A DNA stretch of 64,000 bases from a phage: assembly GCA_012401045.1 (NCBI GenBank), contig GCA_012401045.1_4704.2; one strand, written 5' to 3'. Below are positions 4,744-56,698 of this stretch, piece by piece (positions within the stretch are counted from its first letter, which is position 1; every line of letters begins with the position of its first letter). Under the pieces are notes generated by a model. The model had not been told where the DNA came from, ran no database searches, and worked only from the letters and a program-made list of their open reading frames with translations. The position numbers were made by a program, and so were the translations under genes.

Positions 4744-4828
4744 ACGGATGTAAAAAAAATAACACATAGTTAACCTTCTCCCCAACCCGATGAGGGAAGG
4801 GGAGAAGGGCTATGCGCTATTTAATTTA

Positions 4829-9591: not shown

Positions 9592-11028
9592 TTACTTTTT
9601 CGATGACGCTTTCTCAAGAATCTTGAAAAAGGTCATACCTATACCGACAACGGCCGCGGTTATGCTCGCAGCGGCTTTCCAAACATCGACGTTACGTTGA
9701 CGTCGCGCTTCTTCCGCTTCACGTTGTCTTTTTGCCTCTTCATCACGTCGACGTATCTCAGCAGCAAACTCGTCGTGCTTACGTTTGGATTCTTCGTCTC
9801 GACGACGAAGTTCAGCGACGAATTCTTCATGTTTGCGTTTAGCCTCGTCGTCACGACGTTTTAAATCAGCTTGATAATCTTCGTGTATTTGTCTACGTAG
9901 ATCATCTTGACGCTTCATTTCGGCTTGGTGTTGTTCCATCCTACGTTTTTGTTCGTCTTTAAGCTGATCGAGTTCGGCTTTATGTTGTTCATCGCGCAGC
10001 TTTGCGTCGGCGCGATGCGCCTCATGCATCTGTGAGATAACTGCCTTGTGTTCATCCGCCATACGTCGCATTTCAGCCATCACCCCTTTAAGGGTTTCTT
10101 CTGATGCCTTACGTTCGTAGCTACGTTGGTCGAAATCATTTTTGTAGGCTTCTTTTTGGATGGGGTCGCGCCAATGCAATGCCGATTCACGTGTCGGAAA
10201 AACATTGTACTTCCACATCTCTTTTTCCAAATCTTCGACCGGTACGAAGATGGAGTCATTATTCCCGAAGGTAACCAACATGCCTGGCGCGCCTGCTCCA
10301 TTCGTTGGTTTTATTTCGAACGCTTTCCCCAACACGTTAACCCATAAGCTATACGGATTATGAAAGTCGGGCGGCGTCCAATGGATAGTGAGTTGCGTTC
10401 CGAGAATCCGGAAACCCTCTGTTTTTCCCGTCAAGCTCCGCGCGCACGTTGCGATGTAGGGGTGATCAATCCCTTTCGTAACGTGGTCTGCGCTTTTGTA
10501 TTCTCCTTTAACTTTTACGATTGCCACGTTGATTTGCGCGACATAAGCGGGTTGATTAAAGTTCAACGTGTTGAGGTCAATTTGACATATTTCATCCAGC
10601 GTATCGTACCAGTCTTGCTGGTCTAATAGACGCGGCATTTTCTCTGTGTTAACAATACGACGGATATGCGGTTTCCTTATCGCGTAACCTGTACCGTTTT
10701 TAACACGGAGTATATCCCGACGTCTACCCGCGTAGACGAAGTTTCTGAATGCACCATTCGCATTAGATACGTCATGGCTGTCAACTATTACAGGACTACG
10801 AAATTTTGAACGTCGTACGATCCTGAATGTATTGCCGTCCTCAACCCTACCAGGAATGTACTGGAACATATTGTCGGAGGTGATAACCAACACGGTATGG
10901 CCAGATTCATTAATACATGCCCATCCTAATTCCAGGTCATATAACGGTTCAGCATAACCGTCAATGCGATAAGCGTGCGTACCATCCCACGGTTCGAACG
11001 CGGTATCACATATTGGCATGGAGGGCAT
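9592..11028 (-). CDS. hypothetical protein with E-R/K-rich repeat helix and C-terminal transmembrane anchor
   Basis: ORF track; start moved to ATG after GGAGG; about 2.5 tandem 16-aa repeats (RRRDEExKRKHEEFxAEL); terminal hydrophobic AAASITAAVVGIGMTFFKIL followed by KK. Confidence 0.85.
   Translation of the reverse strand: MPSMPICDTAFEPWDGTHAYRIDGYAEPLYDLELGWACINESGHTVLVITSDNMFQYIPGRVEDGNTFRIVRRSKFRSPVIVDSHDVSNANGAFRNFVYAGRRRDILRVKNGTGYAIRKPHIRRIVNTEKMPRLLDQQDWYDTLDEICQIDLNTLNFNQPAYVAQINVAIVKVKGEYKSADHVTKGIDHPYIATCARSLTGKTEGFRILGTQLTIHWTPPDFHNPYSLWVNVLGKAFEIKPTNGAGAPGMLVTFGNNDSIFVPVEDLEKEMWKYNVFPTRESALHWRDPIQKEAYKNDFDQRSYERKASEETLKGVMAEMRRMADEHKAVISQMHEAHRADAKLRDEQHKAELDQLKDEQKRRMEQHQAEMKRQDDLRRQIHEDYQADLKRRDDEAKRKHEEFVAELRRRDEESKRKHDEFAAEIRRRDEEAKRQREAEEARRQRNVDVWKAAASITAAVVGIGMTFFKILEKASSKK
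9690..9860 (-). repeat. imperfect in-frame tandem repeats (~48 nt units) encoding the E-R/K-rich helix
   Basis: Repeated cgacg/cttcat-containing units visible in DNA; repeated KRKHEEF motifs in protein. Confidence 0.6.
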
Positions 11029-11177
11029 CGTCAACCTCCATCAGATTGAAAACTATCACGCATAATACATTTCCCTTTTCTTGTTCTTATCGAGCCGACA
11101 GCCGACGGTTTCAGCATCGTTCCTAGCGCGAGAACGACCTTACGTGTTGTCTATGCCTTATTCATCGCAGGCGTCTG

Positions 11178-11197
11178 TCACCTAGGTAATGTAAGCG
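11178..11197 (-). promoter_or_regulatory. conserved TCACCTAGGTAATGTA box (third, partial copy of the cassette at 19341 and 56566)
   Basis: Near-identical 15-20 nt block shared with 19361-19380 and 56586-56605; lies upstream (minus-strand sense) of CDS 9592-11028. Confidence 0.3.
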
Positions 11198-11228
11198 TCA
11201 AATTTTTTCTATTCGCAACGATAAACGG

Positions 11229-11276
11229 CATAGAAACCTCCCCCAACCCTTGCGGGCTGAGGGAGGCTGACTTATG
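11229..11276 (-). terminator. GC-rich extended stem-loop, family member b (CATA ... TATG flanks)
   Basis: CCTCCCCC / GAGGGAGG arms with inner CCC-TTGC-GGG; ~90 nt 3' of capsid gene stop. Confidence 0.45.
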
Positions 11277-11365
11277 TATCACGGTGCCGGATGAATGTCC
11301 GGTGCAATGAAACCATCCGCAACGTTGTCATCAAGAATATCATCCAACGAAGCAGCTACGGTAGT

Positions 11366-13588
11366 TCAGTTAGTCTGAACCGGCAGCTTGATGTTTTCAG
11401 TGTAGACCTTACGCAGGTTCACAACGTTAATCAGACCCAGCAGCGGGCAGTTGTTAACGAAGCGGCAGCGCGGCTGAACCATGGTTTCTTTAGAAACCTG
11501 ACCGTTACGGGTAACCTGAGCAACAGATACCAGTTCCGGTACGTACAGGAACATACCGAAGGTCAGCGGATCCGGAGAACCCTGGATACCACGAGACAGG
11601 GTCACGAAGATCTTATCGCGCAGCATGACGTTCGGGTTATCTACAACCACGAAGTTGAAGCTTACACCGACGGTACGGAAATCGCCATCGGTCTGCAGGA
11701 ACTGCGGGATGTAGTTGTCAGTTGCTACTACGCAACGCGGTTTCTCATCGGCGTTGGAAGACAGCAGCTGCAGAGCTGGCTGATAACCAGACTCGGAGTA
11801 CATGCGGTATGCCATCTCACGAATCACGTTCATGATCGCAGCAGACACTTCAGCACGACGTTCTGCAGTGGTGGTACCCTGAACAGATTTCTCCAGGTCC
11901 AGATTGATTTCTTCGAACCACGGACGGATCAGGTAACGACCGAAACCTTCGATCTGGATGTCACCGAACTGACGGAAGCGAGAGGTCGCAACCGCTTTCA
12001 GTGCGTCTTTGTAGCTGAACAGTTTCTCAACCATCAGGTTGTCGAAACGTGCGTTAGCAGCTTGGATCAGAACGTCCAGGTCAGCAGCGTTTTCTTCCCA
12101 ATCCAGCGGACGAGGAATGGAGAACGGAGCCAGCAGGCCGATTGCGTAACGTTCTTGCTTCATGTTGAAGTCAAGGTGCTTACCGCGTTCACGACGGTTG
12201 CTGTTGTTACGGCGGATACGCAGTTCGTAACCAACCAGTTTGAAGCTCAGGTCTTCAGCCAGTTGTTTGAACTCTTCGCTCTTACGCGGTTGTTCGATGT
12301 TGTCCTGATCAACCAGGCGATACAGTTCAGCGTTAGCGCCGTTAACACGCAGACCCGCTTTCTCTACGTTGGAAGAACCGTAAACTTCGATCGCCAGCTG
12401 AGCAGCAGATTTCGCATCGATGATGTCCTGCAGCGCTTCGGCTTTCGCACCTTTAACGTCTTTGGTGTTCTCATCAACGAAGATGGAGTGGGTGTCGAAC
12501 GCCAGGGTCATTTTGCGGAAGTCGCCTTCCAGGGATTTCTGGAAACCGTTGGTGATCAGACCAGATACGTCGAACGGTACGTAAGAGGTTTTGCTGTGCT
12601 TGGTAGATTTGATTTCCACCAGGATTTTGGTCAGCGTGATCTGGGCGTCCAGCGCGTCGGTGTTGTCGCTATAACCGTTAGCCAGGATGCTATCGTCTTC
12701 AGCGATACCGATCATGTCGATCAGTTTATCAACAGCCAGGTAAGACGTTTTATAAGTTACGCCTTTAATTTCGATGTCGCGCGGAGCAACGATAGCTTTG
12801 TCAACGAAGTACTGCGCGTTAGCATCGTCAGCACGATAGATCGGATGCAGATCGGTCACGTCGTTGGACAGAACGTCGTTGTACATGAACGCATCCAGCA
12901 GCGGACGACGTACCCAATCAGCCGGAGTACCGTCGGCGTTACGACGCAGGTGGTTGAACACCAGCGGACGACGGAAAGATACGTCGTAACCGATCTGGTT
13001 CGGAGCCAGAACGATGGTGTTGTACAGTTCGTTACCCATGCGGCTCAGACGAGAAGCCTTCACGTTGAACACAACGGAGTACGGCATCATGTCACGCAGT
13101 TCTTTCTGGTCGTAGGACAGCTGAACCAGTTCTTCAGATTCGCAACCGCAGGAATCAGCAGCCATCATGACGAAGTTAGAGCTGTCAACTTCACGGCCAG
13201 ACGGAGTGGTGCTGATGTTCATGGAACGTGCTTGTTTAGCATATTCCACCGGGTTACCATGAGCCAGCATGATCAGTGCTGCTGCACGAGCCTGCTGTGC
13301 GTTCATGGTGAACAGCTGTTCTTCAATACGCTGCTTCTCTTCCGGAGTGGTGGTTTCGAAGCCCAGCATGGACAGAACCGGTTCTTCTGCTTTACGGATG
13401 TCGCTGCTGAAGCTCTTAACATCCATTTCGTTAACCAGTTTGTCCATGGATTTGAAATCAACCTTAGAAGCAGATTCCATAGACAGGAAGGTGTTCTCCA
13501 GACCTTTGTCTGCTGGTTTGCTACCATTAGCGGTCAGGAACTGGCGAGTGGCCGCGACCTGTTGGCTAAGAAGGGTTTTATCATTCAT
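11366..13588 (-). CDS. major capsid protein candidate (740 aa, jumbo-phage size class)
   Basis: ORF track; size typical of phiKZ-like capsid proteins (~740-750 aa); very strong highly-expressed codon bias (ctg, cgt, ggt, aac); AAGGAT RBS; followed by stem-loop b. Confidence 0.7.
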   Translation of the reverse strand: MNDKTLLSQQVAATRQFLTANGSKPADKGLENTFLSMESASKVDFKSMDKLVNEMDVKSFSSDIRKAEEPVLSMLGFETTTPEEKQRIEEQLFTMNAQQARAAALIMLAHGNPVEYAKQARSMNISTTPSGREVDSSNFVMMAADSCGCESEELVQLSYDQKELRDMMPYSVVFNVKASRLSRMGNELYNTIVLAPNQIGYDVSFRRPLVFNHLRRNADGTPADWVRRPLLDAFMYNDVLSNDVTDLHPIYRADDANAQYFVDKAIVAPRDIEIKGVTYKTSYLAVDKLIDMIGIAEDDSILANGYSDNTDALDAQITLTKILVEIKSTKHSKTSYVPFDVSGLITNGFQKSLEGDFRKMTLAFDTHSIFVDENTKDVKGAKAEALQDIIDAKSAAQLAIEVYGSSNVEKAGLRVNGANAELYRLVDQDNIEQPRKSEEFKQLAEDLSFKLVGYELRIRRNNSNRRERGKHLDFNMKQERYAIGLLAPFSIPRPLDWEENAADLDVLIQAANARFDNLMVEKLFSYKDALKAVATSRFRQFGDIQIEGFGRYLIRPWFEEINLDLEKSVQGTTTAERRAEVSAAIMNVIREMAYRMYSESGYQPALQLLSSNADEKPRCVVATDNYIPQFLQTDGDFRTVGVSFNFVVVDNPNVMLRDKIFVTLSRGIQGSPDPLTFGMFLYVPELVSVAQVTRNGQVSKETMVQPRCRFVNNCPLLGLINVVNLRKVYTENIKLPVQTN

Positions 13589-16037: not shown

Positions 16038-16075
16038 CCCTCCTCCAACCCGTAAGGGAAGGAGGAAGGTTTATG
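16038..16075 (-). terminator. GC-rich extended stem-loop, family member c
   Basis: CCCTCCTCC-AA-CCC-GTAA-GGG-AA-GGAGGAAGG then TTTATGACCGC; convergent gene ends on both sides. Confidence 0.5.
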
Positions 16076-17459: not shown

Positions 17460-17535
17460 CGTATTTTACCTTTCTATGTTAGGTGGATTTCGGATAGAAG
17501 AATCAATGCATAAACTAATTTAAGTTTGTTAAGGT

Positions 17536-18438
17536 TTACTTAGCCTTTGAGTTATACGGACTAACATGTTGTTGTACTCGTTGGATTGTATCGTAGTACG
17601 GGTTAAGTTGATTGAACATGTTGTTGTGTGGGTGATAGCCATATGGCGCATTTTGCCTTGTTGGTGAGAAACCTTGTTGAGAAGGACGGTTTGAATTAAC
17701 CGCGAGTACGTAGTAAACCAAATTTTGGCGGTCGAACGTTCCTTCGTTTTTGAAGGTGTCGGCGTAGGCGCTTACCGCTGGAGCGAGCCTATCACCATCG
17801 GTTGTAATGATTGTGCCATCGGGATAAACTTCCCGAACGACGCACCATGTTCCGATGAGAACATCTTTGGGTGATGTATTACCGTATCCGGTTGTAACGG
17901 TAAGGTAAGTATCGAACCCTTCAGAACAACAAGGATGACGATAGATGGGTCCTGTCATTTCCAGTCTATCGGTGTCACCGCATTTCTCTATTGAGAGCGA
18001 TGATGTGTCGGTTTTGAAATTGTCAAATTCTTTCTTTAAGTCGATTACGGGTTCTTTCGTATAGTACTTCTTGATTGCTTTGACGTAAAGATCGGGAACG
18101 GTTGTCAGCAATCCGTTATACCTGATTCTCAGGTTTTCGAGTAATCCAAAGATGCTCGCGCATGCCTGTTCGCGAGGTTTTGTAAGATAAGAGATCCCCC
18201 CAGGAACGCTGGGATCTTTGAGAAAGAAGATTGCGTTATTGTCGTTGTGCGATGCGTTGAAGAAAACGATTGATTCGATATATACGGAGCATAGGCTGTC
18301 GTTGGCGTCGTCAGATAACACCCAGATGCACTCATCGGTCGTCTTGTTTAAAAGTTCTGTTTTGTCGACCAAACGTTGTTTCATTGCGAGGAAATGTGCC
18401 TGTTGTTCAGCGGATAATTCACGATAAATGGTGGTCAT
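17536..18438 (-). CDS. hypothetical protein (300 aa), paralog of 18524-19306
   Basis: ORF track; shared block PIYRHPCCSEGFDTYLTVTTGYG...REVYPDGTI versus PIYVHPECHTTYDRYLTITGGVA...REIYPDGRI. Confidence 0.8.
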   Translation of the reverse strand: MTTIYRELSAEQQAHFLAMKQRLVDKTELLNKTTDECIWVLSDDANDSLCSVYIESIVFFNASHNDNNAIFFLKDPSVPGGISYLTKPREQACASIFGLLENLRIRYNGLLTTVPDLYVKAIKKYYTKEPVIDLKKEFDNFKTDTSSLSIEKCGDTDRLEMTGPIYRHPCCSEGFDTYLTVTTGYGNTSPKDVLIGTWCVVREVYPDGTIITTDGDRLAPAVSAYADTFKNEGTFDRQNLVYYVLAVNSNRPSQQGFSPTRQNAPYGYHPHNNMFNQLNPYYDTIQRVQQHVSPYNSKAK

Positions 18439-18523
18439 GTTGAGCTCCTTGATTACGATAAGGATGATTGCGGTTTTGTGGTGTTGGTAGGGCCCTAAAC
18501 AAATGAACCCTACTAATATTAGG

Positions 18524-19306
18524 TTAATCGGGATCGGCGTAGAAATGGTGAGGATAGCCGGAGTACGATCCCGCGTTACCGGTTATGGATTCTTTCTGGG
18601 AATCGACGACGAGTGCATAGAACTGTCGGGAATTTGTTAGCGTTGAGAAATAAGAGGAAAGGACTTTTTCATTCAACGCATCGCAAGGTAGACAGGTGCG
18701 ACCGCAAAACGTCACGATACGGCCGTCAGGATAGATCTCACGAATCATTCTCCACTCGCCAATATCGACTGGTGATGGCGCTGCTACACCACCTGTTATC
18801 GTTAAGTAACGATCGTACGTGGTATGGCATTCAGGATGAACGTAAATCGGTTGGGCATCAATACTATCGTTTTCTGTTTGATCTTTATTCACGTATACCT
18901 CAAGGTAGATTGTTGGTAACCCGGTTAGAACGCCAGTGTCACGACGTTTTTTGGTAATCCGGGGACGGATATTATCGAGCACGCCTTCCAGTTTTTCTGC
19001 GACTTCGTCAGCCGGTAATATATACCCGTATGTTGGTTCTGGGTCATCACCGTGGCTAAATAAGATACGACAGTCGTTTTTATTAAATTCTATATCTTCA
19101 GGTGGGAAGATGATGACGCGAACCGTATGGCGTTCTGCGATATAAAATCCTTCAGGCCCCTCAGTTTTGGTAAGTGTAAAGGACCAGGATGAATGATCTT
19201 CAAGTGACGTGCCTGCCAGGAAAAAGTCCGCCCGAATTGGTGCGTTCCATTTCGCGATCATATTGGCGTGACCAATAACGCCTAATTTTTGATAAATATC
19301 TGTCAT
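18524..19306 (-). CDS. hypothetical protein (260 aa), paralog of 17536-18438
   Basis: ORF track; GAGGA RBS; promoter/operator-like cassette immediately upstream. Confidence 0.8.
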   Translation of the reverse strand: MTDIYQKLGVIGHANMIAKWNAPIRADFFLAGTSLEDHSSWSFTLTKTEGPEGFYIAERHTVRVIIFPPEDIEFNKNDCRILFSHGDDPEPTYGYILPADEVAEKLEGVLDNIRPRITKKRRDTGVLTGLPTIYLEVYVNKDQTENDSIDAQPIYVHPECHTTYDRYLTITGGVAAPSPVDIGEWRMIREIYPDGRIVTFCGRTCLPCDALNEKVLSSYFSTLTNSRQFYALVVDSQKESITGNAGSYSGYPHHFYADPD

Positions 19307-19340
19307 GATTGTATCCTCGGTTATTAAGAGAATTTACAAC

Positions 19341-19400
19341 GATAACAGTAACCGCTGTTATCACCTAGGTAATGTAGTCGCGAAATAAACTGGAGTAATG
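19341..19400 (-). promoter_or_regulatory. conserved promoter/operator-like cassette: 8-bp inverted repeat GATAACAG-N6-CTGTTATC followed by ACCTAGGTAATGTAGTCGCGAAATAAACTG
   Basis: About 60 nt block ~85% identical to 56566-56620; sits 35-95 nt upstream of CDS 18524-19306 start. Confidence 0.4.
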
Positions 19401-19413
19401 CGAAATAAGACAG

Positions 19414-19457
19414 CATAAGCCCTCTCCCAACCCGTAAGGGAAGGGAGAGGGAATATT
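19414..19457 (-). terminator. GC-rich extended stem-loop, family member d
   Basis: CATAAG-CCCTCTCCC-AA-CCC-GTAA-GGG-AA-GGGAGAGGG-AATATT; stop codon of upstream minus gene overlaps 3' flank. Confidence 0.5.
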
Positions 19458-20823
19458 AAACGGTTGGACGAACGGTGTTGTCTTTTTCTGGTGCAAGCCA
19501 TAACGTGACCGTACCATGGCATGTCCACTGTGGTTCACGTACAGAAGAACCTGCCATTGTAACAGCGCAATCGGTACGCATGATAACCCCGTATGCTTCG
19601 CAGAGATTGTTATCTTGCATCCACACAACTTTAGCAGGCATGCCGGGATACAACATATCCATGTTTGCGTATTCCCACACCAACTGCATTGTTCTACCGC
19701 GTAATCCAGCAGTATTACTTAATTCACGCCATCGGTTATCGGTTACGCGTCCCATCCCTTTCGCCACCTTCACGTTATCGCTACGTTCTTCAGTTACGTA
19801 CTCGCTAACGTTTACGGTACGACTGATTATCGTATCACCCCCTTTTGATAACGTCATTCCCTGACTCATCTGACTTGCCGAAACAAAACGCCCACCCGCA
19901 TTACCTAACAACGAAGCCGCGTTATTGATGTCGCTTACCGACGCCCCTCTCGTACATGCAATTTCCACGTATTTGTCACGATTGATCCAGGTCTTGTCCA
20001 TGCCCGGAAACATGTCGGCAGGATAGTTGTAAAAGATAGCCGTGCGCCGACCGTCAGAGAAACGGGTTTCGTCGTAGAGAGGATAAATATACAGATACGG
20101 AGATTGATAATAACAACCGACATCCGCTGAATAAATACCGACCTGGTTCTGGATTTTGTCTACGAGATCCATTGCGTTGGTGCCGTGCGGAAGAATAAGC
20201 AACTTGAACAGGTTGTCGTTATTCGGTGCAACAATATCCACGCCCTGCATTTTGAACCCGGTGTCGGCTTCAACCGCAGAAAGTATCTTGCTGAATTCGA
20301 GCCGTAACACATCCAGCACTTTCGACCCGGTATAGTTTTCACCGGTTTCTGATTGCATGAAGCTTTCAAGAACAGGATCGAACAGTTGAAATTGAAGATC
20401 GACCATTTGTTCGTAGTCTTTCTTCGAAGAATCGGTTGCGGTACGTTCGTCGTTAGCAGACATACGACTGTCTACGGTTGTTAAACAAACCGCTCGGTAG
20501 ACGTAAGCTTGTGCGGCATCGTCTACGGTTTGGCGTTGTCCGCGCATCAGGCTGTACGCCTGCACGATGATGCGCATTTTAAGTTGTTGTTGGTACGGTA
20601 GAATGTATTTTCCGTAACTGCCGGGCGGGAACTTTACAGAGATATAGAGTTCATCTCCAGCGTTACGTTCATAGTCTCGATACGTGTGGACTTGAGTCAC
20701 TAAAGGAACAGACACCGTCATTGACGGCGTGATTAATTCCGCGGTGACTTTATACGCAACAGCAACTGCTTCCTGCGCAAATGTACCGATATACCGTCCT
20801 AACGGCGTCTGTTTGTAATCCAT
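19456..20823 (-). CDS. hypothetical protein (455 aa), probable virion protein
   Basis: ORF track. Confidence 0.85.
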   Translation of the reverse strand: MDYKQTPLGRYIGTFAQEAVAVAYKVTAELITPSMTVSVPLVTQVHTYRDYERNAGDELYISVKFPPGSYGKYILPYQQQLKMRIIVQAYSLMRGQRQTVDDAAQAYVYRAVCLTTVDSRMSANDERTATDSSKKDYEQMVDLQFQLFDPVLESFMQSETGENYTGSKVLDVLRLEFSKILSAVEADTGFKMQGVDIVAPNNDNLFKLLILPHGTNAMDLVDKIQNQVGIYSADVGCYYQSPYLYIYPLYDETRFSDGRRTAIFYNYPADMFPGMDKTWINRDKYVEIACTRGASVSDINNAASLLGNAGGRFVSASQMSQGMTLSKGGDTIISRTVNVSEYVTEERSDNVKVAKGMGRVTDNRWRELSNTAGLRGRTMQLVWEYANMDMLYPGMPAKVVWMQDNNLCEAYGVIMRTDCAVTMAGSSVREPQWTCHGTVTLWLAPEKDNTVRPTV

Positions 20824-29260: not shown

Positions 29261-30545
29261 TGCTGGTTTCCTCAAGTTCGAGATGCGCGTCAAGATAATC
29301 ATTAAGACCGTCGATGACGTCGCAGACAGTTAACAGGAATCGGGCAAAAGCAACCGCCTGGAAGCCGACGACGTTACGCGCGATACCCACACGTTGAACG
29401 ATAGCGGATGCGGCGGTATCGTTGTTGTCCATCTGTTGTAGCAGGCGCTCGTAAGGTTGAATCCATTCGTCCTGATCGGCAAGGCTTGCTTCAAGACAAC
29501 GTTTAAATTCCAACTGTCGTAGCGTAGACCATAACGTACTTAATGCGTTGATGATCGCGTTGGTTCCGTCGATAACATCGTTTAACGGCAAGAAACGGAA
29601 TCCGTCTTTTGCTGATTGGAAAGGTACGGCTTCCCACACAACGCTGAATTGCGTTCCTGTTGCGTCTTCGATGTTGTGTAATTTAAGATAGGAAGCACCA
29701 ACAGGTACGTCAACGACTAGATCGTCTGTTCCGGTAGGCGTTAACGGCTTCTCGCATAACGCATCGTTGATGACTTCAAGGATATTCTCCCAACAGGCTT
29801 CGTTTTCTGCAGCGATACCTTCTTTGTTATCCGCTGATGGTGCTTTTAGTAGCCGCATTAATAACGGATCGAGTTGACGATGCCACGCTGCGAGGATTCC
29901 TGTGTTCGTTACGATGTTTTCTGCGGTTTGTCGTAAATCAGCAATACTGCTTACCGCACCGCCTTTCGGATGAAGATAACGCCAGTTGTAGGGAAAGTTC
30001 TCCCAGAACGCGTTATCTTCATCGACGTCGTATTCGGAAATATTTTTCAACGCAACCGCTTTCTTTAATAACGGCTTCACCTGACGAACGAATCGACGAT
30101 AACAACGATTACAGATATCGATCGCGTAACGGTATAACTCGTTCATGTAAAGCCATAACGCTCGGGTTGCTTCTTTTGCGGTCTTGTCAAAACTTTCCAT
30201 GTTCAAGCTCATCCCGCTGGAAGTTTCCTCTTCCAGACCCTCGATGATTTGGTTTGGGTCCATCCCCATCCCGGCTGCTGCGGTTGTTGCGATATGTTTG
30301 ATGGTGTTAATATCGCGTTCTTCAACTTCAGCCATGTTTGGGACAATATCCAGCCTGAGTTTATTTAATGTTTGAAGGTGTTGTTCACCTTCTTTCATCA
30401 CCGTGTTTGTTTCGTCGATTGAGTGAAACTGATTCTCAATATTACTGGCATCGAGAACGTTGCCAGCGATACCGAACGATTCTACAGGTTCATCATCAAT
30501 CCCTTGAAATAACGATGTCATGGGTTGTTGTAACACGTTTTCCAT
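29244..30545 (-). CDS. paralogous virion protein family member (433 aa)
   Basis: ORF track; AGGAG RBS; contains one copy of the 25-nt repeat. Confidence 0.85.
   Translation of the reverse strand: MENVLQQPMTSLFQGIDDEPVESFGIAGNVLDASNIENQFHSIDETNTVMKEGEQHLQTLNKLRLDIVPNMAEVEERDINTIKHIATTAAAGMGMDPNQIIEGLEEETSSGMSLNMESFDKTAKEATRALWLYMNELYRYAIDICNRCYRRFVRQVKPLLKKAVALKNISEYDVDEDNAFWENFPYNWRYLHPKGGAVSSIADLRQTAENIVTNTGILAAWHRQLDPLLMRLLKAPSADNKEGIAAENEACWENILEVINDALCEKPLTPTGTDDLVVDVPVGASYLKLHNIEDATGTQFSVVWEAVPFQSAKDGFRFLPLNDVIDGTNAIINALSTLWSTLRQLEFKRCLEASLADQDEWIQPYERLLQQMDNNDTAASAIVQRVGIARNVVGFQAVAFARFLLTVCDVIDGLNDYLDAHLELEETSNAADL
30368..30392 (+). repeat. 25-nt exact repeat copy 1 (ATGTTTGAAGGTGTTGTTCACCTTC), inside CDS 29244-30545
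   Basis: Identical 25-mer at 51691-51715; contains 7-bp inverted repeat GAAGGTG/CACCTTC. Confidence 0.8.
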
Positions 30546-30645: not shown

Positions 30646-30689
30646 CATAAACCTTCCTCCAACCCAACAGGGAAGGAGGAAGGGATATG
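30646..30689 (-). terminator. GC-rich extended stem-loop, family member e
   Basis: CATAAA-CCTTCCTCC-AA-CCC-AACA-GGG-AA-GGAGGAAGG-GATATG. Confidence 0.5.
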
Positions 30690-33350: not shown

Positions 33351-33395
33351 CATAGAACCCTCTCCCAACCCGTCAGGGAAGGGAGAGGGGATATG
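33351..33395 (-). terminator. GC-rich extended stem-loop, family member f
   Basis: CATAGAA-CCCTCTCCC-AA-CCC-GTCA-GGG-AA-GGGAGAGGG-GATATG; only ~45 nt upstream of the next start codon. Confidence 0.5.
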
Positions 33396-41627: not shown

Positions 41628-41670
41628 CATAACCCTCCTCCAACCCAACAGGGAAGGAGGAGGGAATATG
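41628..41670 (-). terminator. GC-rich extended stem-loop, family member g
   Basis: CATAA-CCCTCCTCC-AA-CCC-AACA-GGG-AA-GGAGGAGGG-AATATG between convergent genes. Confidence 0.5.
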
Positions 41671-44525: not shown

Positions 44526-47321
44526 TTAAGCTAATTTACCGAAACCGGCTTTCTGCAGTTTCTCGTTGATGATTTTCGCTTCAGCGAAGACGTAATCACG
44601 ATACGCAGTGACTAATCCGTCCACCCGTGAACGCAAGGCTTCTTCGAAGCTATACCACGCAGCGATTTCACGAATCTGTGCGTTGATATAATCAACGGTT
44701 GAGCGAAGCTCGGTTGCGTTTTCTTGCGGAATGGCTTTCACCTGGCGAGCAACGTCATTTAAACGACGGAACTGTGTTTCGATTTCTTTAAACTTACTGT
44801 CGGCAAGTTTGCTGAATTCGTCACCAGAACGGGTAAATAACAGATAGCTGTTGCCGTCAAGTGCGGTCGCTAACTGCTGAAGTACGTTGGTGTCCGGATA
44901 CACAGGAGTACCGCTTTGCAGTACTTTCTCACCGAATTCCGCGAAGTCCTTCGGTGGTAAGTGTGCAGACGTTGTCAATTCGTTGAAACGGAAAGTCAGC
45001 GAATTATCATACAGCATCCGGTACGCTTCCATACCCTGTTTCATGGTACCGGCCAGGTTAGCCAGACGCGGAGCAATCTCGCCTTCTTTAGCGCGTTTCT
45101 GGTCTTCTAACGCCCCTTCGAGTTCTTTACACTGGTCGTTCAGATACACGATACGATCAGGACGTAGACGACGCATCTCACGAAGAATAGTATCCAGCTT
45201 ACCTTCCTGGAAATAACCCAACGTTAAAGACGTACACGCTTGCTGAAGACGATCGAACACCGGTAAGGTTACCATCTCCTTACGGATACCATCAACAATC
45301 GCAGAAACAGCCGAAAGTTTCTGTTCTGTAGTCAATGGAACATCAGAGGCCGACTTGCTGGGTGCACCAACAACGTTACGCATTGCGTCGGTATCCTCGG
45401 TTTTATCAACCTCTTTACGAACATGCTCATCAGGAACATAAACGTTCGCGTTACGTTTCGCCTGCTTGATGGCGTCGTTGGCCGCTTTTTCGGTGGCTGC
45501 TACGCTATCAGCACGTTTCTTCAAGAGTTCAATAATCCAGAGCAACAGACGACGAATCGCAGTATAGGCCGTCGTGATGATGACACCGATAACAGCCATC
45601 TTCATGATACCGAACGATTCCATGGTCGGCTCTAACGCTTGGTCTGGCATATACCGTTCACGCAGCTCCAGATAGATCTGCTCATCTGGTTTGCTGACCT
45701 CACCACGATGCGAAGTACGATAGATGGCTTCGTCAATCTCAACAAGATCTTTGCGGGCCTGGCGATCGGATTCTGTTAAGTAAGCACAACCGGATACGTC
45801 GTCTTCGAAGCTTAAGAATTTGAAAAAGTCACTGACGTCGATCTTGATCTTCTTCGCTTCATTATCGACATCGATAACATCTTTTTTCTGTGCCTGATAT
45901 TCCGCTTTGATGTCGTTCACCGGCTTCAACGCACGTTCTTTTAATGCCTGCACGATCTGTTTCCAGTCGGCGTCACGCTCAAGAACAAGGAAGTAATTCT
46001 TGAGTTCAAAAGCACGGTAACGCGCAACGAGTTGTTCTACCTGAATATGAGCGAGTTGCACATCCATCAGCCAACGCGACATTGCTGAGATCAAACGGCT
46101 ATAAGCAAGCAATGTCTGATATGTTAGCTTCATGTGCTTTTCGTACAGCTCAATATCGCCGTCTTGAATATCAGCCGTTGGGTTCATTTCCTTCGTTGCT
46201 TTGAAGATCTGTTCGGCCTCATTTAACGTTTGTTCGAATTTGACTTCATTAAACGTGTCAAACGGTTCAGCCAACTCCATCATTCGATCGTGAAGCTCAC
46301 GAACCCAGGCTTCCTTATTGTTGCGAATAGCTGCGTCATCGTGAAGTTCAGTTTGATGTTTCTGTACCCATTCTTCGACGATATCAGCGGCGGCAACAAT
46401 TCCTGTACCATCGGAAACTAACGGAACAACTCCAGCAAGTACGCCTACACACGCCGGGGTTTTCCAATAATCGTTCAAAGCGTTTCTGAATTCAACGATG
46501 GATTGTACGTTTGGTACCGTATCCAAAAACGTACTGCCGTTACGGCTCATTGTCGTTACGATATCAGCGAATTCCTTCTGCTTAGCGGTAACAAAAGGAA
46601 CCAGGACCATAAGCCATTCAGCAACCGACTTCGCTTTCTCTTTCAGATTTTTGTCAGCGATTTCCTTAAGGTTTATCGCACCACCGTAACCTGCAAGCTC
46701 TTTATATACGTCGCTAAGGGTCATCTGTTTATCCAACATTTCTTTGAAACGTGGGTAATCAGCACCTAACGCATCGACAATATCGTTGATTACGTCATCA
46801 GTTGTTGCGATAAACTTCTTCGTATCAACGTTTGAATATTTCCAGACGTATCGTACTGCTTTCTTGATTCCTGCAAAGATAAACGCCCAGATACGCTTGA
46901 TGAGTTCCCAGACTTTCTTCGCGCCATCGACAAACAGTTTAGAGACCTTGGCAACGAATCCTTCCTGCACCAATTCAACGCCGTTACGTGATGGGATTTC
47001 CGTGAAGAAAGCATCCGGCAGTTGTTTCGGGAATGCGTCACCAAGACGCATACGCAGTTCCGGTACATCAGCACGAGAAATACCGCGTGTTACTAATTGT
47101 TCGTGAAGACGAACGTTTTCTTCACCAGAGGTCACGAATTCGTCAACATCGAAGGAGACCATTGTTTCCTGATCTTCGGTGGTAACGACGCTTGAACCAT
47201 CACTGGTTTGGATGTCTTCGTCAGGGAATGCCATGAGCATACCGTGACGCATTTCAACCACCCCGTAATCGGTTGCTAAACCGAATTCGTTGTGGTCTGG
47301 GGTAATAACTGGGATACTCAT
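44526..47321 (-). CDS. large virion-type protein (931 aa); N-terminal region homologous to paralog family
   Basis: ORF track; AAGGAG RBS; motif ELVQEGFVAKVSKLFVDGAKKVWELIKRIWAFIF. Confidence 0.9.
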   Translation of the reverse strand: MSIPVITPDHNEFGLATDYGVVEMRHGMLMAFPDEDIQTSDGSSVVTTEDQETMVSFDVDEFVTSGEENVRLHEQLVTRGISRADVPELRMRLGDAFPKQLPDAFFTEIPSRNGVELVQEGFVAKVSKLFVDGAKKVWELIKRIWAFIFAGIKKAVRYVWKYSNVDTKKFIATTDDVINDIVDALGADYPRFKEMLDKQMTLSDVYKELAGYGGAINLKEIADKNLKEKAKSVAEWLMVLVPFVTAKQKEFADIVTTMSRNGSTFLDTVPNVQSIVEFRNALNDYWKTPACVGVLAGVVPLVSDGTGIVAAADIVEEWVQKHQTELHDDAAIRNNKEAWVRELHDRMMELAEPFDTFNEVKFEQTLNEAEQIFKATKEMNPTADIQDGDIELYEKHMKLTYQTLLAYSRLISAMSRWLMDVQLAHIQVEQLVARYRAFELKNYFLVLERDADWKQIVQALKERALKPVNDIKAEYQAQKKDVIDVDNEAKKIKIDVSDFFKFLSFEDDVSGCAYLTESDRQARKDLVEIDEAIYRTSHRGEVSKPDEQIYLELRERYMPDQALEPTMESFGIMKMAVIGVIITTAYTAIRRLLLWIIELLKKRADSVAATEKAANDAIKQAKRNANVYVPDEHVRKEVDKTEDTDAMRNVVGAPSKSASDVPLTTEQKLSAVSAIVDGIRKEMVTLPVFDRLQQACTSLTLGYFQEGKLDTILREMRRLRPDRIVYLNDQCKELEGALEDQKRAKEGEIAPRLANLAGTMKQGMEAYRMLYDNSLTFRFNELTTSAHLPPKDFAEFGEKVLQSGTPVYPDTNVLQQLATALDGNSYLLFTRSGDEFSKLADSKFKEIETQFRRLNDVARQVKAIPQENATELRSTVDYINAQIREIAAWYSFEEALRSRVDGLVTAYRDYVFAEAKIINEKLQKAGFGKLA

Positions 47322-49322: not shown

Positions 49323-51074
49323 ATGAGCGAACAAGAACGAAAACCTAAGAAGAAACTGCTCGGTATTCAATGTCGACACATCAGCTATAACGAAGCGAAC
49401 GATGGCAGCAAGAACGACCTCATGATCGCAAAAGAGATCATGTTCTTTGATGACAATACGCAAGCGACGAACCTTCGCTTCTTTGAGAATTACAAACGTC
49501 CGTTTTGGGTGACGGTAGAGAGTAAACGTAAGAACAAATATAAAAAGGAAAGCGAGAAGCTCTCGCATGTGCGTCGCTACGATGTCCGCCAAAGCGAACT
49601 GGTTGAAAAGATCAGCTCGGTACTTTATAAAAGACGTGCTGACGATAACACCCGTTTACAGCAGCTTGCACGGAGTCCATACCTCTATGGAACGGACGTT
49701 AGCGCCAGCTGTTATTTAAAAACCCAGTACAACACAAAATGGCCGGAATACGTCGATAAATTACCCGCTTCCATTGCCTGTTTCGATATCGAAACCGACG
49801 TTGTCCACGGACACGGTAAGATCGTTTGTATGTCTATTACAATGGGATACAATGCGATACTTTGCTATACCAAGGACTTCGTTGGTCATATTCCGAATGC
49901 CATTGAGAAAACCCATGAGAAGATTCGATATTACCTGGCCGAACGTCTGAATACCAAAGAAGATCCCCACGCATTCGAAAAATATCAGTACGATGTTCGA
50001 ATCGTAGAAAGCCCGGCACAAGCGGTCATCCAATGCATGCAGAAGGTTCACGAATGGCAGCCGGATTATCTCCTTGGCTGGAATATCGCGTTCGATATTC
50101 CGCGCATGCTCCAGGCACTGAACGAGGAAGGGTATCGTCCCGAGGATGTTTTCTCCGATCCCCGTATACCACCTAAATATCGTATTGCTCGCTGGGTACC
50201 ACCGAAGACCGACAAGGTATCTGCTTCAGGTCGTAAAACCAACCTTACCCTTGAGCAAACCTGGCCGATGTTTTATACGATGGCTACGTATCAGGTTATG
50301 GATGCGATGTGTGGCTATAAGTTCGTTCGTTTAGGAAGACCGGATGAAGGACGCTATTCACTCGATGCGGTGTTAGAGCGAAATAAATGCCATACGAAAT
50401 TAAAAGCTATTCCTGGTACAGAGGGGTTCACGGAGCTTGCCTGGCACGAAGAGATGCAAACGAACCATCAAATCGACTACGGCGTATATAACCTTTGGGA
50501 TAACCAGGGTATTGAGGCGTTGGACCAGAAAACAAAAGACTATTCGATGACCATCCCTATCCGTTTAGCGGCGTCGGATTTGAAAGATTTCAGTTCTAAC
50601 CCTAAACGTATCTGCGATAAACTTTTCTTCGTTTATCTTAACCGTGGGGAAGTCATGGGATGTACCGCTGACGACATGACCCAGGAAGAAGATAAGTGGG
50701 TTATCTCACGAGCTGGACATATCGTCACATTACCATGCGATCTCATGGCTGACAACGGCATTCATCTCTTCTGGGATATGCCGAACCTGAGAAGTTATAT
50801 CCGTCTATTCGTTGCAGACCTTGACATTAGCAGTTCATACCCGAATGGGCAGATCCTGTTGAATCTATCCAGAGCGTGTGTTTTTCGCGAGCTCTCACGC
50901 ATTGAGGGCGTCTCTGACTATCAATTCAGGAAGTTAGGTATCAACTTTATTACCGGAGGTAAAACGAACGCTGTAGACTTCTGTAGAATCGTTTATAAAG
51001 CACCATCGATGTTTGAACTTTTAGAACATTTCGATGCAACGCGTCCAAAAGAGGAAGCGCGGACCATCGAATGA
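49323..51074 (+). CDS. family B DNA polymerase, N-terminal part (3'-5' exonuclease domain plus motifs A and probable B; no motif C)
   Basis: ORF track; Exo I FDIETD, Exo II NIAFD, Exo III YNLWD, motif A DLDISSSYPNG, possible motif B KLGINFITGG; protein ends ~35 aa later. Confidence 0.7.
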   Translation: MSEQERKPKKKLLGIQCRHISYNEANDGSKNDLMIAKEIMFFDDNTQATNLRFFENYKRPFWVTVESKRKNKYKKESEKLSHVRRYDVRQSELVEKISSVLYKRRADDNTRLQQLARSPYLYGTDVSASCYLKTQYNTKWPEYVDKLPASIACFDIETDVVHGHGKIVCMSITMGYNAILCYTKDFVGHIPNAIEKTHEKIRYYLAERLNTKEDPHAFEKYQYDVRIVESPAQAVIQCMQKVHEWQPDYLLGWNIAFDIPRMLQALNEEGYRPEDVFSDPRIPPKYRIARWVPPKTDKVSASGRKTNLTLEQTWPMFYTMATYQVMDAMCGYKFVRLGRPDEGRYSLDAVLERNKCHTKLKAIPGTEGFTELAWHEEMQTNHQIDYGVYNLWDNQGIEALDQKTKDYSMTIPIRLAASDLKDFSSNPKRICDKLFFVYLNRGEVMGCTADDMTQEEDKWVISRAGHIVTLPCDLMADNGIHLFWDMPNLRSYIRLFVADLDISSSYPNGQILLNLSRACVFRELSRIEGVSDYQFRKLGINFITGGKTNAVDFCRIVYKAPSMFELLEHFDATRPKEEARTIE

Positions 51075-51646: not shown

Positions 51647-51690
51647 TGAATGCTCCTAGTGGTTATGTCGATTGATCGATGTATTGATTT

Positions 51691-51715: not shown

Positions 51716-51716
51716 G

Positions 51717-53860: not shown

Positions 53861-53862
53861 GA

Positions 53863-56092: not shown

Positions 56093-56518
56093 TTAATTCA
56101 GTGATGCATATAAGGCATAACGACTGTAGATCTCAACCGCCGGTCCGTTATGTGTTAACAGACCATCCTGGTTGTAATACTGGAAAAATGAATAACGTTT
56201 GTCGAAGTGATAAACAAAAGCGATGTCTTTGCCGTCAAAACCTGTGATGCGTGGTCTGTTTTTATCTAGCAATGCTTTGACTTTTAACAGTGTTGCCGCA
56301 CGTGCTTTAACGTTAGGGATCAAGCCATCACAATCGATATAAACGGTGTAACCTGTTTCAGATGTTGCGACGGTTGTATTGCGATTGACGCGGAAGATTT
56401 TTGTTTCGTATGTACTATCTTCAAGAATTGGGTTTTGTTTTTCGTATTTTCGTTTACGTAGAAATTCTACAACGGTGATATAGTTAGCGGTAATATGCCC
56501 GGTTATTGCTTGTAACAT
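56093..56518 (-). CDS. hypothetical protein (141 aa)
   Basis: ORF track; AAAGGATG RBS; promoter/operator-like cassette upstream. Confidence 0.75.
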   Translation of the reverse strand: MLQAITGHITANYITVVEFLRKRKYEKQNPILEDSTYETKIFRVNRNTTVATSETGYTVYIDCDGLIPNVKARAATLLKVKALLDKNRPRITGFDGKDIAFVYHFDKRYSFFQYYNQDGLLTHNGPAVEIYSRYALYASLN

Positions 56519-56565: not shown

Positions 56566-56620
56566 GATAAGATATTTTGCTCTTATCACTAAGGTAATGT
56601 AGTCGCGAAATAAACTGCGT
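56566..56620 (-). promoter_or_regulatory. conserved promoter/operator-like cassette: inverted repeat GATAAGA-N8-TCTTATC followed by ACTAAGGTAATGTAGTCGCGAAATAAACTG
   Basis: ~85% identical to 19341-19400; upstream of CDS 56093-56518. Confidence 0.4.
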
Positions 56621-56639
56621 TAACACGAAATAAAAACAG

Positions 56640-56698
56640 CATAGAACCCTCCTCCCCCATCCTTCAAGAGGACGGTGGGAAGAGGGAGAGATTAAATG
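56640..56698 (-). terminator. GC-rich stem-loop, family member j (enlarged and diverged)
   Basis: CATAGAA-CCCTCCTCCCCC...GGGAAGAGGGAGAG-ATTAAATG. Confidence 0.35.

Follow-up and report, generated by a model that had tools for sequence, protein, structure and literature searches.

In phiKZ-type phages, the early promoters read by the virion polymerase carry a conserved A/T-rich element of ~10 nt centred near position -10 (PMC7598289), and infection by these phages is independent of the host RNA polymerase (PMC7598289, PMC10914365). The phiKZ gene 054 (chmA), for example, has a primary start site with the early motif (PMC8244752), and terminators situated within phiKZ 5' leaders yield short RNAs (PMC10914365). 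For the Bacillus jumbo phage AR9, the early consensus has been reported as AAATATATATTAT-(6N)-G(+1) (PMC5312081). Early transcription in both phiKZ and AR9 takes place within minutes of infection and requires neither the host RNA polymerase nor newly made protein (PMC7598289, PMC5312081). A further type of unit, the so-called PeSLs (promoter-early stem-loops) of T4-type phages, is represented by composite terminator/promoter motifs of ~100 bp, which flank accessory genes without known relatives and which recombine (PMC2839356, PMC4122927).

The current analysis concerns a box of 55-60 bases that is repeated in the window, i.e., the whole 64,000-nucleotide stretch of phage DNA under study. Its three copies most probably represent the early-gene promoter of the phage itself, of the phiKZ type (probability roughly 0.8). 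On this reading, the box is a usual element of phages of this family rather than a new repressor-controlled switch.

Source phage and copies of the repeated box

The window exhibits 94-98% identity to the Escherichia coli jumbo phage Goslar (Chimalliviridae), and thus derives from a close relative; the same cassette is present in Goslar at all three places that it occupies in the window, designated sites A, B and C (Table 1). Sites A and B share an exact 26-mer, AGGTAATGTAGTCGCGAAATAAACTG, at positions 19367-19392 and 56592-56617, for which 100 shuffles returned 0 matches. The first-pass annotation had reported a duplication of ~60 nt at ~85% identity, a value which is indeed obtained without gaps across 55 nt (19354-19408 versus 56579-56633), whereas a gapped alignment over the segments which that annotation had delimited (19341-19400 and 56566-56620) gives 46/61 identities, or 75%. 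The similarity between the two sites extends through the GC-rich hairpin located upstream, with 69% identity across 19336-19456 versus 56561-56695. The third and shorter copy, site C, which had also been noticed near position 11178, spans 11178-11203. When read on the minus strand, all three copies consist of an A/T-rich stretch followed by TTTCGCGAC-TACATTAC-CTWGGTGA. The pattern TAYATTACYTNNNTG has three matches in the window against 0.03 expected, and the motif matrix assigns scores of +45 to +50 to the members while the best non-member position scores -9.8. Two further ATTAC-containing boxes that had been proposed upstream of the helicase (near 14365) and polymerase (near 49295) genes are present as short strings, but their matrix scores of -45 and -31, respectively, led to their rejection as members. 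Sites A and B are closer to each other than either is to the other members of the family; they belong to one promoter sub-type and have related terminator-like hairpins upstream, and cassettes of this kind appear to exchange sequence by recombination.

Table 1. Coordinates in the window of the features identified at sites A, B and C
Feature	Position	Strand	Basis
Site A GC-rich terminator-like hairpin and conserved tail CTTATGCTGTCTTAT	19405..19451 (hairpin 19420-19451)	-	fold -27 kcal/mol, z -5.3
Site A early-promoter-like motif GCATTACTCCAGTTTATTTCGCGAC-TACATTAC-CTAGGT	19363..19401; core box 19369-19376	-	matrix score 49.9
Site A palindrome GATAACAG-CGGTTA-CTGTTATC	19341..19362	-	RNA hairpin -7.8 kcal/mol, z -5.7
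Site A predicted transcription start	19362 (Goslar 49718)	-	G of conserved TGA, 7 nt after box
Rest of site A 5' leader	19304..19340; Shine-Dalgarno GAGGA 19314-19318; ATG 19304-19306	-	sequence
Two tandem paralogous genes downstream of site A	17536..19306: 260 aa 18524-19306; 300 aa 17536-18438	-	ORFs
Site B GC-rich terminator-like hairpin and tail TTCTATGCTGTTTTTAT	56630..56690 (hairpin 56647-56690)	-	fold -31.4 kcal/mol, z -4.9; alignable with site A
Site B early-promoter-like motif GTGTTAACGCAGTTTATTTCGCGAC-TACATTAC-CTTAGT	56588..56626; core box 56594-56601	-	matrix score 48.5; exact 26-mer
Site B palindrome GATAAGA-GCAAAATA-TCTTATC	56566..56587	-	RNA hairpin -5.9 kcal/mol, z -6.8
Site B predicted transcription start	56587 (Goslar 86691)	-	first palindrome base
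141-aa gene (Goslar gp075 homologue) downstream of site B	56093..56518	-	ORF list
Site C GC-rich terminator-like hairpin and tail TTTCTATGCCGT	11225..11266 (hairpin 11237-11266)	-	fold -30 kcal/mol, z -5.0
Site C third promoter copy TTGCGAATAGAAAAAATTTGACGCT-TACATTAC-CTAGGTG	11179..11218; box 11186-11193	-	matrix score 45.0; pattern match
Site C predicted transcription start	11179 (Goslar 43252)	-	

Genes adjoining the three sites

The hairpins upstream of sites A and B directly follow the stop codons of the spike-cap gene homologue (Goslar gp048; ORF 19456-20823) and of the Goslar gp076 homologue (ORF 56692-57093), respectively, and that of site C is found downstream of the gene for the major head protein (11366-13588; Goslar annotation). 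On the downstream side, the pair of genes encoding proteins of 260 and 300 aa is predicted from the sequence to be transcribed from site A. The two proteins are paralogues (25% identity, E 2e-19), and the pair is absent from Goslar, in which 89 nt stand in the place of window positions 17513-19301. Peptide-pattern searches of viral contigs for homologues of the 260-aa protein confirmed none; a relative was recovered through the DNA pattern instead. In the site A leader, the Shine-Dalgarno sequence is predicted to pair with UUCUC in a second hairpin, and the complete leader folds at -16 kcal/mol (z -4.35). The 141-aa gene, which is likewise predicted to be transcribed from site B, heads a variable run of small genes, with insertions/deletions further downstream at 52239-53876 and 54323-54875. 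At site C, the leader to the Goslar gp040 homologue comprises ~150 nt.

Neither the site A genes nor the 141-aa gene returned a match in Pfam, PHROG/PHROGs or NCBIfam, or by sequence among solved structures. The genes downstream of sites A and B had been described as unrelated, and BLASTP and profile comparison detected no kinship between them; the notion that they are distant paralogues which were duplicated together with the cassette was rejected, as BLASTP returned a 14-residue patch only and the profile comparison a probability of 0.9%.

The motif in the Goslar and phiKZ genomes

A genome-wide motif search, which had been named as a check of the proposed promoter function, identified 13 sites in Goslar in addition to the three in the window, all of which are located upstream of genes. 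The 13 Goslar matches to TAYATTACYTNNNTG, against ~0.2 expected by chance according to our own estimate, are all on the minus strand (13/13), and a check against the annotation placed each of them in an intergenic region, upstream of and pointing into the next minus-strand gene, including the nuclear-shell gene chmA. The three window sites are similarly intergenic and co-oriented with the downstream gene (3/3). Matrix scores are sharply bimodal, with members at 30 or above and everything else at 17 or below. The 13 Goslar sites possess the core TAYATTAC, which reads TATATTAC at eight of them and TACATTAC in the three window copies. Per-position information content furthermore revealed conserved flanks, i.e., YTNNNTGA downstream of the core and, upstream of it, TTTCACGRC together with either an A/T-rich block or TTAAT/ATTG. 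Matches to the degenerate pattern in two IMG/VR contigs (3300009285_007817 and 3300025073_000817) were taken as due to chance, since the A/T-rich upstream part is missing from them.

In phiKZ, of which 180 kb were scanned, the pattern TATATTA[CT]-N5-TG occurs 17 times, always on the gene strand and always with the core TATATTAC (17/17), and 16/17 occurrences are intergenic. These 17 matches have A/T-rich flanks in common, which are very similar to those of the Goslar-type motif. The site upstream of phiKZ chmA, TGAAAAAAATTTGAGATT TATATTAC TAAATTGAAT, is nearly identical to that upstream of Goslar chmA, TGAAAAAAATTTCAGGGT TATATTAC CTAGGTGAAT, and in both phages it is situated 80 nt before the ATG. 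The TATATTAC-N5-TG sites of phiKZ agree with what has been described for the early promoters of that phage, which its virion RNA polymerase uses. The first-pass annotation had likened the box to the AT-rich phiKZ early consensus, with one mismatch; the phiKZ core TATATTAC proved correct on direct inspection of phiKZ, and the interpretation of the box as a promoter is supported by a motif that is genome-wide, strand-specific and strictly intergenic, with a core and flanks matching the phiKZ sites. A text search of the literature for TATATTAC returned unrelated papers only.

The Goslar-type motif resembles the phiKZ early promoters in its A/T-rich upstream elements, in the conserved TG 6-7 nt after the core and in its identical position before the nuclear-shell gene, as well as in being strictly intergenic, co-oriented with the next gene and present in tens of copies per genome. 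As for differences, the third core position is a C in the window copies, and the TTTAAACAG of phiKZ is replaced there by TTTCGCGAC, a block that contains G/C.

Proposed organization of the transcription units

It is proposed that the box is the early promoter of this Goslar-like, nucleus-forming jumbo phage, corresponding to that of phiKZ, and that it would be read by a virion-carried RNA polymerase which is injected together with the DNA. Each copy would then constitute the boundary of two minus-strand transcription units. The upstream gene, a structural gene at two of the sites (encoding the spike cap and the major head protein), ends there and is followed by a strong, GC-rich hairpin which belongs to a repeated family and is probably a terminator; ~20-25 nt beyond this hairpin come the A/T-rich upstream element, then TTTC(G/A)CGAC and the core TACATTAC centred near -10, and lastly the conserved start region CTWGGTGA, of which the G of TGA is the predicted start at all three sites (Table 1). 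The first 22 bases of the transcripts predicted from sites A and B would form a perfect hairpin from +1. Most likely, this hairpin serves as an RNA stem-loop at the 5' terminus, which would protect the message or adjust its translation, rather than as a protein-binding operator.

The motif family, its placement, its agreement with phiKZ and the capacity to fold are demonstrated by the present data. For the window sites, we infer the terminator activity of the upstream hairpins and the function of the +1 hairpin, and, by analogy with phiKZ and AR9, the use of the virion polymerase, the early timing and the exact start base. The start base was derived from the AR9 arrangement ...TATATTAT-(6N)-G(+1) together with the conserved TG in Goslar and phiKZ. 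The A/T-rich core TATATTAT, the six intervening bases and the G start of AR9 early promoters reproduce the spacing from TAYATTAC to the conserved G observed here; AR9, which is not nucleus-forming, has uracil DNA and possesses unrelated flanks, is used solely for placing the start base. According to a preprint (bioRxiv 10.1101/2023.09.20.558163), Goslar chmA is transcribed by 5 min, and the legend of the start-site figure has the sequence shown begin 91 nt upstream of the ATG. As 91 nt corresponds to a position 11 nt upstream of the box, this legend neither confirms nor excludes a start 7 nt after the box.

The hairpin at the predicted start and alternative readings

The two inverted repeats at sites A and B are as the first-pass annotation had described them, and the first base of each coincides with the predicted transcription start; at site C, neither a stem at the predicted start nor an adjoining palindrome was found. 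Among the 13 Goslar promoters, a stem begins at +1 or +2 in six, against 2.8 expected for random GA-starting sites (P ~0.04), a modest enrichment which gives the same count when the assumed start is slid 3 nt upstream. The mean fold from +1 is -5.5 kcal/mol, compared to -2.75 +/- 0.5 for shuffles, and the sequences of the stems are unrelated among promoters. A clear +1 hairpin is present at only 2/17 phiKZ sites as opposed to approximately half of the Goslar sites, and the feature is therefore not general in the family. In one relative, a different downstream sequence again forms a hairpin from +1, GAUGC-CAU-GCAUC. A comparison of orthologues revealed one substitution that changes an A-U pair to G-U. 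The site A stem of the relative L008 is shifted in register with eight pairs kept, and at site B of the relative L013 the stem is retained while 8/8 loop bases have changed.

Bacterial mRNAs can be stabilised by 5'-terminal stem-loops, as exemplified by the ompA leader. The +1 palindromes are similar to such stem-loops in that they would form a stable hairpin without unpaired bases at the predicted 5' end; they differ in that the start base is here a predicted one and in that the hairpin occurs at only about half of the promoters.

The first-pass annotation had interpreted the palindromes (+1 to +22) as operators bound by a dimeric phage DNA-binding protein, which would switch both early units together. 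Perfect inverted repeats do adjoin the promoter, as is the case for the palindromic operators of dimeric repressors, and those of sites A and B both fit GATAA-N12-TTATC, a pattern which is somewhat over-represented (3 versus 0.26 expected in the window, 6 versus 1.4 in Goslar) and which leaves room for a common binding protein at these two sites; the conserved arms and freely changing loop of site B in relatives are, moreover, what would be expected of a spacer that is not contacted. However, co-regulated promoters with the same inverted-repeat sequence and spacing were not found: the arms differ at positions 6-8 and have only GATAA/TTATC in common, the spacing is N6 at one site and N8 at the other (and becomes N11 in L008, with the shift in stem register), and most of the left arm is the promoter's own conserved start region, TGA(T/A). 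Unlike with the operators of dimeric repressors, each promoter has its own palindrome, those of other family promoters at the same position being unrelated and site C having none. The remaining GATAA...TTATC matches sit inside genes, away from promoters, and a regulon based on GATAA-N10-13-TTATC was rejected, the only promoter-adjacent matches being sites A and B. Finally, the orthologous G-U change keeps the RNA stem but breaks the DNA palindrome. The proposed co-regulation by a dimeric protein is consequently not supported, and we consider an operator decidedly unlikely; a 5' stem-loop of the RNA fits the palindromes better than a shared operator, because the hairpins of this kind, present at approximately half of the Goslar promoters, differ in sequence from one promoter to the next. 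It is highly improbable that the hairpin region instead acts as an attenuator, i.e., as a premature terminator within the 5' leader that gives a short RNA, as in some phiKZ leaders. A simple scan does call a minus-strand terminator-like site at 19358-19336 (ACAGCGG...CGTTGT, then AAATTCTCTT), the alternative stem of which is strengthened by a T-to-C change in L009, but this stem is weak in the window, requires G-T pairs, is not conserved in L008 and is accompanied by a poor T-rich tail, and site B has no counterpart. Searches against Rfam gave no match at gathering thresholds anywhere in the window, and within 19200-19500 E values up to 1 likewise brought none.

That the boxes are host sigma-70 promoters, read by E. 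coli RNA polymerase in the manner of T4 early promoters, has a probability that we regard as close to negligible. TACATT and TATATT are similar to a -10 hexamer, and TTGAAA or TTGACG lies upstream in some members of the family, yet a sigma-70 scan finds no minus-strand site at box A or box B, neither the conserved bases (TTTCACGRC, ATTAC, YTNNNTGA) nor the distances between them fit the -35/-10 geometry, and the host RNA polymerase is not needed in a phiKZ-type infection. Of a different nature is the suggestion that the terminator-promoter unit also provides dispersed homology for the insertion, loss and exchange of accessory genes, which is compatible with the early-promoter reading and which we view as possible, if somewhat doubtful. 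Several observations point in this direction: dispersed copies share ~115-130 nt of similarity, sites A and B being alignable over ~120-135 nt; within its first 31 kb, the window differs from Goslar in only one large segment, which begins at the ATG next to site A; two metagenomic relatives have, at sites A and B, an extra gene without known relatives between the upstream stop codon and the terminator; the site B cassette of L013 is chimeric, with a site-A-type terminator, a mixed spacer and the site B hairpin; and a 50-nt insertion in L014 duplicates the CCTWRGTGA start region. Against this, the comparison covers only four related genomes, intergenic regions tolerate insertions anyway, and the difference from Goslar at site A is better explained by unequal recombination within the tandem paralogue array, the Goslar remnant retaining the first codon region and the C-terminal ...YNHNQFGNNF.

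Upstream hairpins and likeness to PeSLs

The GC-rich hairpins upstream of sites A, B and C (-27 to -31 kcal/mol) are members of a hairpin family that is repeated in the window, and they are probably terminators. Their tail is a conserved YTATGCTGT with no U-run, and a simple terminator scan calls neither of those at sites A and B, the site A hairpin being missed because it has no T-run. The cassette resembles the PeSLs of T4-type phages in combining a terminator stem-loop with an early promoter over ~100 bp of conserved sequence which ends at a Shine-Dalgarno sequence and start codon, in having dispersed copies beside accessory genes without known relatives, and in exhibiting insertions/deletions and chimeric cassettes at its junctions (across the four genomes compared, and with recombination as the presumed cause). 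It differs from PeSLs in that its promoter is not of the sigma-70 type, being attributed to the phage-encoded multisubunit polymerase, and in that its hairpin is without the poly-G/poly-C form. As PeSLs are defined in part by a sigma-70 match, which the cassette does not have, it is regarded as a PeSL analogue and not as a member.

Implications for Goslar-type jumbo phages

No new kind of regulatory system is revealed. It is conceivable, though in our view rather unlikely, that the +1 hairpin is a dedicated RNA signal for the messages of the virion polymerase and that the terminator-promoter units are a recombination substrate for early accessory genes. If so, the RNA signal might protect the triphosphate 5' end against decay or sensing by the host, or might tag the RNA for phage RNA-binding proteins or for export out of the early infection vesicle, and the turnover of accessory genes would represent a PeSL-like system built on a non-sigma-70 promoter.

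The early-promoter reading itself yields a concrete early-promoter map for Goslar-type E. coli jumbo phages, comprising the 13 Goslar sites and the three in the window, with a start base predicted for each. This map sets early units apart from structural-gene units on the same strand, and it corrects at least one Goslar gene call, i.e., gp047, which overlaps a promoter and is a deletion remnant; it may be of use for annotation, for engineering and for the reading of existing Goslar RNA-seq data. Furthermore, both the core of the phiKZ early promoter and its location ahead of the nuclear-shell gene have been conserved in Goslar and phiKZ, phages whose shell proteins are only ~24% identical.

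Layout of the repeated cassette

The first-pass annotation described a promoter/operator-like cassette of about 60 nt present twice on the minus strand, and this duplication is genuine, since the 26-mer AGGTAATGTAGTCGCGAAATAAACTG occurs exactly at both places (sites A and B) and in none of 100 shuffles. The reported identity of approximately 85% holds over 55 ungapped nucleotides, while a gapped alignment of the intervals originally given (19341-19400 and 56566-56620) yields 75%. Read in gene orientation, the resemblance does not stop there but also takes in a GC-rich hairpin further upstream, so that ~120-135 nt can be aligned in all. Both inverted repeats were recovered as described, as was the shorter third copy (site C). 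The additional 'ATTAC boxes' near the helicase gene and the polymerase gene amount to no more than short strings: their motif-matrix scores are -45 and -31, against +45 to +50 for the three real sites and -9.8 for the next best window position, and they were rejected as members of the motif.

A close relative by megablast (94-98% identity) is Escherichia phage vB_EcoM_Goslar, one of the nucleus-forming jumbo phages in the Chimalliviridae; its counterpart of window position 1 lies at ~32072, and it has the same cassette at all three orthologous places. The order of parts is identical at sites A, B and C, all on the minus strand: the preceding gene's stop codon (at site A this gene is homologous to gp048 of Goslar, which encodes the baseplate spike cap; at site C it encodes the major head protein), the GC-rich hairpin (folding energies between -27 and -31 kcal/mol, with z near -5), the conserved tail YTATGCTGT, an A/T-rich stretch, TTTCGCGAC (variant TTTGACGCT at site C), TACATTAC and CTWGGTGA. 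At sites A and B the latter is followed by a perfect palindrome, a Shine-Dalgarno sequence and ATG, with leaders of ~56 and ~69 nt; site C has a leader of ~150 nt without an abutting palindrome.

The hairpin belongs to a repeated family, CCCTCYYCCAACCC-N4-GGGAAGGRRGAGGG, with ...CATAR before and YTATGCTGT... after it, whose members are located after stop codons. As they have no U-run, we infer terminator activity from this position. Both phiKZ and 201phi2-1 are reported to have conserved terminator motifs, and the family is probably this phage's own terminator motif, possibly acting in both directions. Separately, a 31-nt repeat (94% identity) contains the hairpin GAAGGTG-TTGT-TCACCTTC, which may be another terminator type.

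Coordinates of the cassettes and associated features (window positions unless another genome or locus is named)
Feature	Location	Position
Site A	exact 26-mer	19367-19392
Site A	55-nt ungapped similarity	19354-19408
Site A	predicted start	19362
Site A	second predicted leader hairpin (minus)	19304-19340
Site B	exact 26-mer	56592-56617
Site B	55-nt ungapped similarity	56579-56633
Site B	predicted start	56587
Site C	shorter copy	11178-11203
Site C	predicted start	11179
GC-rich hairpin family, copies	window	4774-4808, 16038-16069, 19420-19451, 30652-30683, 33358-33389, 41633-41664, 63348-63379
GC-rich hairpin family, variants	window	11237-11266, 51123-51154, 52186-52215, 56647-56690
31-nt hairpin repeat	window	30365-30395, 51688-51718
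chmA promoter	Goslar (L006)	172964-172978
chmA promoter	phiKZ (L016)	45568-45582
Weak motif match (minus)	Goslar	151634
Paralogous genes	window	17513-19301
Paralogous genes	L008, IMG/VR 3300045988_173921	10391-12668
89 nt in place of paralogues	Goslar	49568-49656
gp047 annotation	Goslar	49584-49772
Extra gene, site A (210 aa)	L008	12823-13455
Extra gene, site A (210 aa)	L009	1623-2273
Extra gene, site B (151 aa)	L013	2374-2829
Extra gene, site B (151 aa)	L014	~2320-2790
50-nt insertion, site B	L014	2865-2960
Insertions in small-gene run	window	52239-53876 (1.6 kb), 54323-54875 (0.55 kb)
1.78-kb insertion	Goslar	81183-82966
Goslar-insertion point	window	50816-50837
Palindrome GATAAAC-N8-GTTTATC	window	50616-50637

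The box as a probable early promoter

The whole Goslar genome, put together from five pieces, was scanned by plain pattern search for TAYATTACYTNNNTG, which returned 13 matches against a chance expectation of ~0.2 per genome (our own estimate); the window has three against a computed 0.03. All 13 are on the minus strand and, when checked against the annotation, intergenic and upstream of a minus-strand gene. On a position matrix derived from the sites, members score 30 or more and everything else 17 or less; for the Goslar sites this matrix is circular, which the pattern search is not. The Goslar sites form sub-types with long common stretches (those at 2567 and 166069, for example, share ~33 nt), so that the likeness of A to B is nothing exceptional for this motif family.

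A direct search of 180 kb of phiKZ with TATATTA[CT]-N5-TG gave 17 matches, every one on the gene strand and carrying the core TATATTAC, so that the first-pass annotation was right about the phiKZ core; 16 are intergenic, and A/T-rich flanks are common to them. The nuclear-shell gene chmA is among the genes downstream of the motif in Goslar, where its upstream copy reads TGAAAAAAATTTCAGGGT-TATATTAC-CTAGGTGAAT, that of phiKZ being TGAAAAAAATTTGAGATT-TATATTAC-TAAATTGAAT; in both phages the box begins 80 nt before the ATG, for shell proteins only ~24% identical. The two chmA promoters are almost identical in sequence and position, and both transcripts have a predicted 5' hairpin beginning GAAU.

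Jumbo phages with their own multisubunit RNA polymerases all possess a conserved ~10-nt A/T-rich element ahead of their early operons, with its centre near -10, the reader of which is thought to be the virion polymerase (PMC7598289). Phage phiKZ has 28-32 such early promoters, including one at a primary start site of gene 054, chmA (PMC8244752; PMC10914365), while those of 201phi2-1 are conserved at -10, -20 and -30. A host sigma-70 promoter was also considered and rejected, a scan of the minus strand at the boxes having returned no site. Based on the phiKZ search and the early-promoter literature, we therefore consider the box most likely to be the phage's early promoter, and its three copies are further early promoters of phiKZ-type phages, a class already known. 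The original promoter interpretation, including its phiKZ link, is accordingly borne out by the genome-wide intergenic motif and the phiKZ core. A literature search of incomplete coverage found no description of a Goslar early-promoter motif. One further Goslar match, weak at score 17 (TACATAACCTAAGGGA), lies upstream of gp165, a gene for an RNA polymerase beta subunit, and might represent an early promoter that has degenerated.

Palindromes at the predicted start

In the AR9 early consensus, AAATATATATTAT-(6N)-G, the G is the start (PMC5312081), and this spacing, applied to Goslar and phiKZ, leads to the conserved TG(A), at its invariant G. By analogy, starts are predicted at the listed positions; at sites A and B the palindrome has the predicted start as its very first base, and a transcript from there would open with a hairpin paired throughout (-7.8 and -5.9 kcal/mol; z -5.7 and -6.8). 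The first-pass annotation had taken these palindromes as the operator of a dimeric DNA-binding protein, a reading to which GATAA-N12-TTATC, common to both sites and somewhat over-represented, lends some weight; other copies of this pattern, however, lie inside genes, and the stems at Goslar promoters are unrelated in sequence (GAAUGAGC, GAUGU, GAAGC, GAUAGAUACG, GAUAAGA, GAUAACAG). A stem from +1 or +2 at -3 kcal/mol or below is formed at six of the 13 Goslar promoters versus 2.8 for random GA-starting sites (P ~0.04), and the first 32 nt average -5.5 kcal/mol, compared to -2.75 +/- 0.5 for shuffles and -4.0 +/- 0.7 for random genomic sites. This enrichment is modest; the stem count is the same with the assumed start moved 3 nt upstream, and only 2 of the 17 phiKZ sites have a +1 hairpin.

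Related phages are represented by two IMG/VR contigs (3300045988_173921 and 3300011560_000001). At site A of L008 the repeat is GTGATAAC-N9-GTTATCAC, shifted in register with 8 pairs retained; site B has unchanged arms in L013, where all eight loop bases are different, and in L014 it contains 50 inserted nucleotides with two more palindromes. At the Goslar 15067 site, an A-to-G change in one relative converts an A-U pair to G-U, and in another relative the sequence downstream is unrelated, yet it too forms a hairpin starting at +1. These comparisons speak more for selection on pairing at the 5' end of the transcript than for a protein-binding sequence common to the sites and, weighed with the caveats on enrichment, start position and phiKZ and with the shared GATAA-N12-TTATC, leave the operator reading unsupported and quite improbable.

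In L014 the insertion separates the promoter from the old site-B hairpin; its palindromes are CCTTAGTGA...TCACTAAGG and GCGTTTTGTTAATAACAAAACGC, and the start region CCTWRGTGA is duplicated. The site-A leader (z -4.35 as a whole) has a second predicted hairpin, pairing UUCUC with the Shine-Dalgarno GAGGA, which could control translation.

Possible gene turnover at the cassettes

Gene-content differences coincide with the terminator-promoter junctions. At sites A and B alike, the two IMG/VR relatives have one additional gene, inserted after the stop codon of the upstream gene and ahead of the terminator; these genes are without known relatives and have none in the window or Goslar. The site-B cassette of L013 is chimeric, combining a site-A-type terminator, a mixed spacer and the site-B hairpin. 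In this the cassettes resemble the promoter-early stem-loops (PeSLs), the terminator-promoter cassettes of T4-type phages (PMC2839356, PMC4122927); as the promoter here is not of sigma-70 type, they are analogues rather than members. These adjoining insertions and the chimera suggest that the cassettes might mediate recombination and gene turnover, which is compatible with the early-promoter reading; since only four genomes were compared, this role is put forward tentatively, and the site-A difference is better explained otherwise. There, two paralogous genes (260 and 300 aa) without known relatives replace 89 nt of Goslar, the break beginning at the ATG. L008 has three paralogues and Goslar one fused remnant left by deletion, the 'gp047' region, which retains the start and the C-terminal ...YNHNQFGNNF; unequal recombination in the tandem array is therefore the best explanation of the difference. 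The gp047 annotation, overlapping the promoter, is probably wrong. The paralogues share the C-terminal motif HPxC..YDxYLTIT.G...G.W..REI..DG.

Elsewhere, the small-gene run downstream of site B has two insertions relative to Goslar, the larger beginning 24 nt from a terminator-like family hairpin (52186-52215). Goslar itself has an insertion, absent from the window, after the DNA-polymerase gene gp068, with the NUMOD1/HNH homing-endonuclease gene gp069 as cargo; the palindrome GATAAAC-N8-GTTTATC lies ~200 nt upstream of the corresponding point.

In practical terms, the analysis yields a map of promoters in Goslar-type phages, with a start base predicted for each, and existing RNA-seq data can serve to check both the +1 hairpins and the gene turnover associated with the cassettes.
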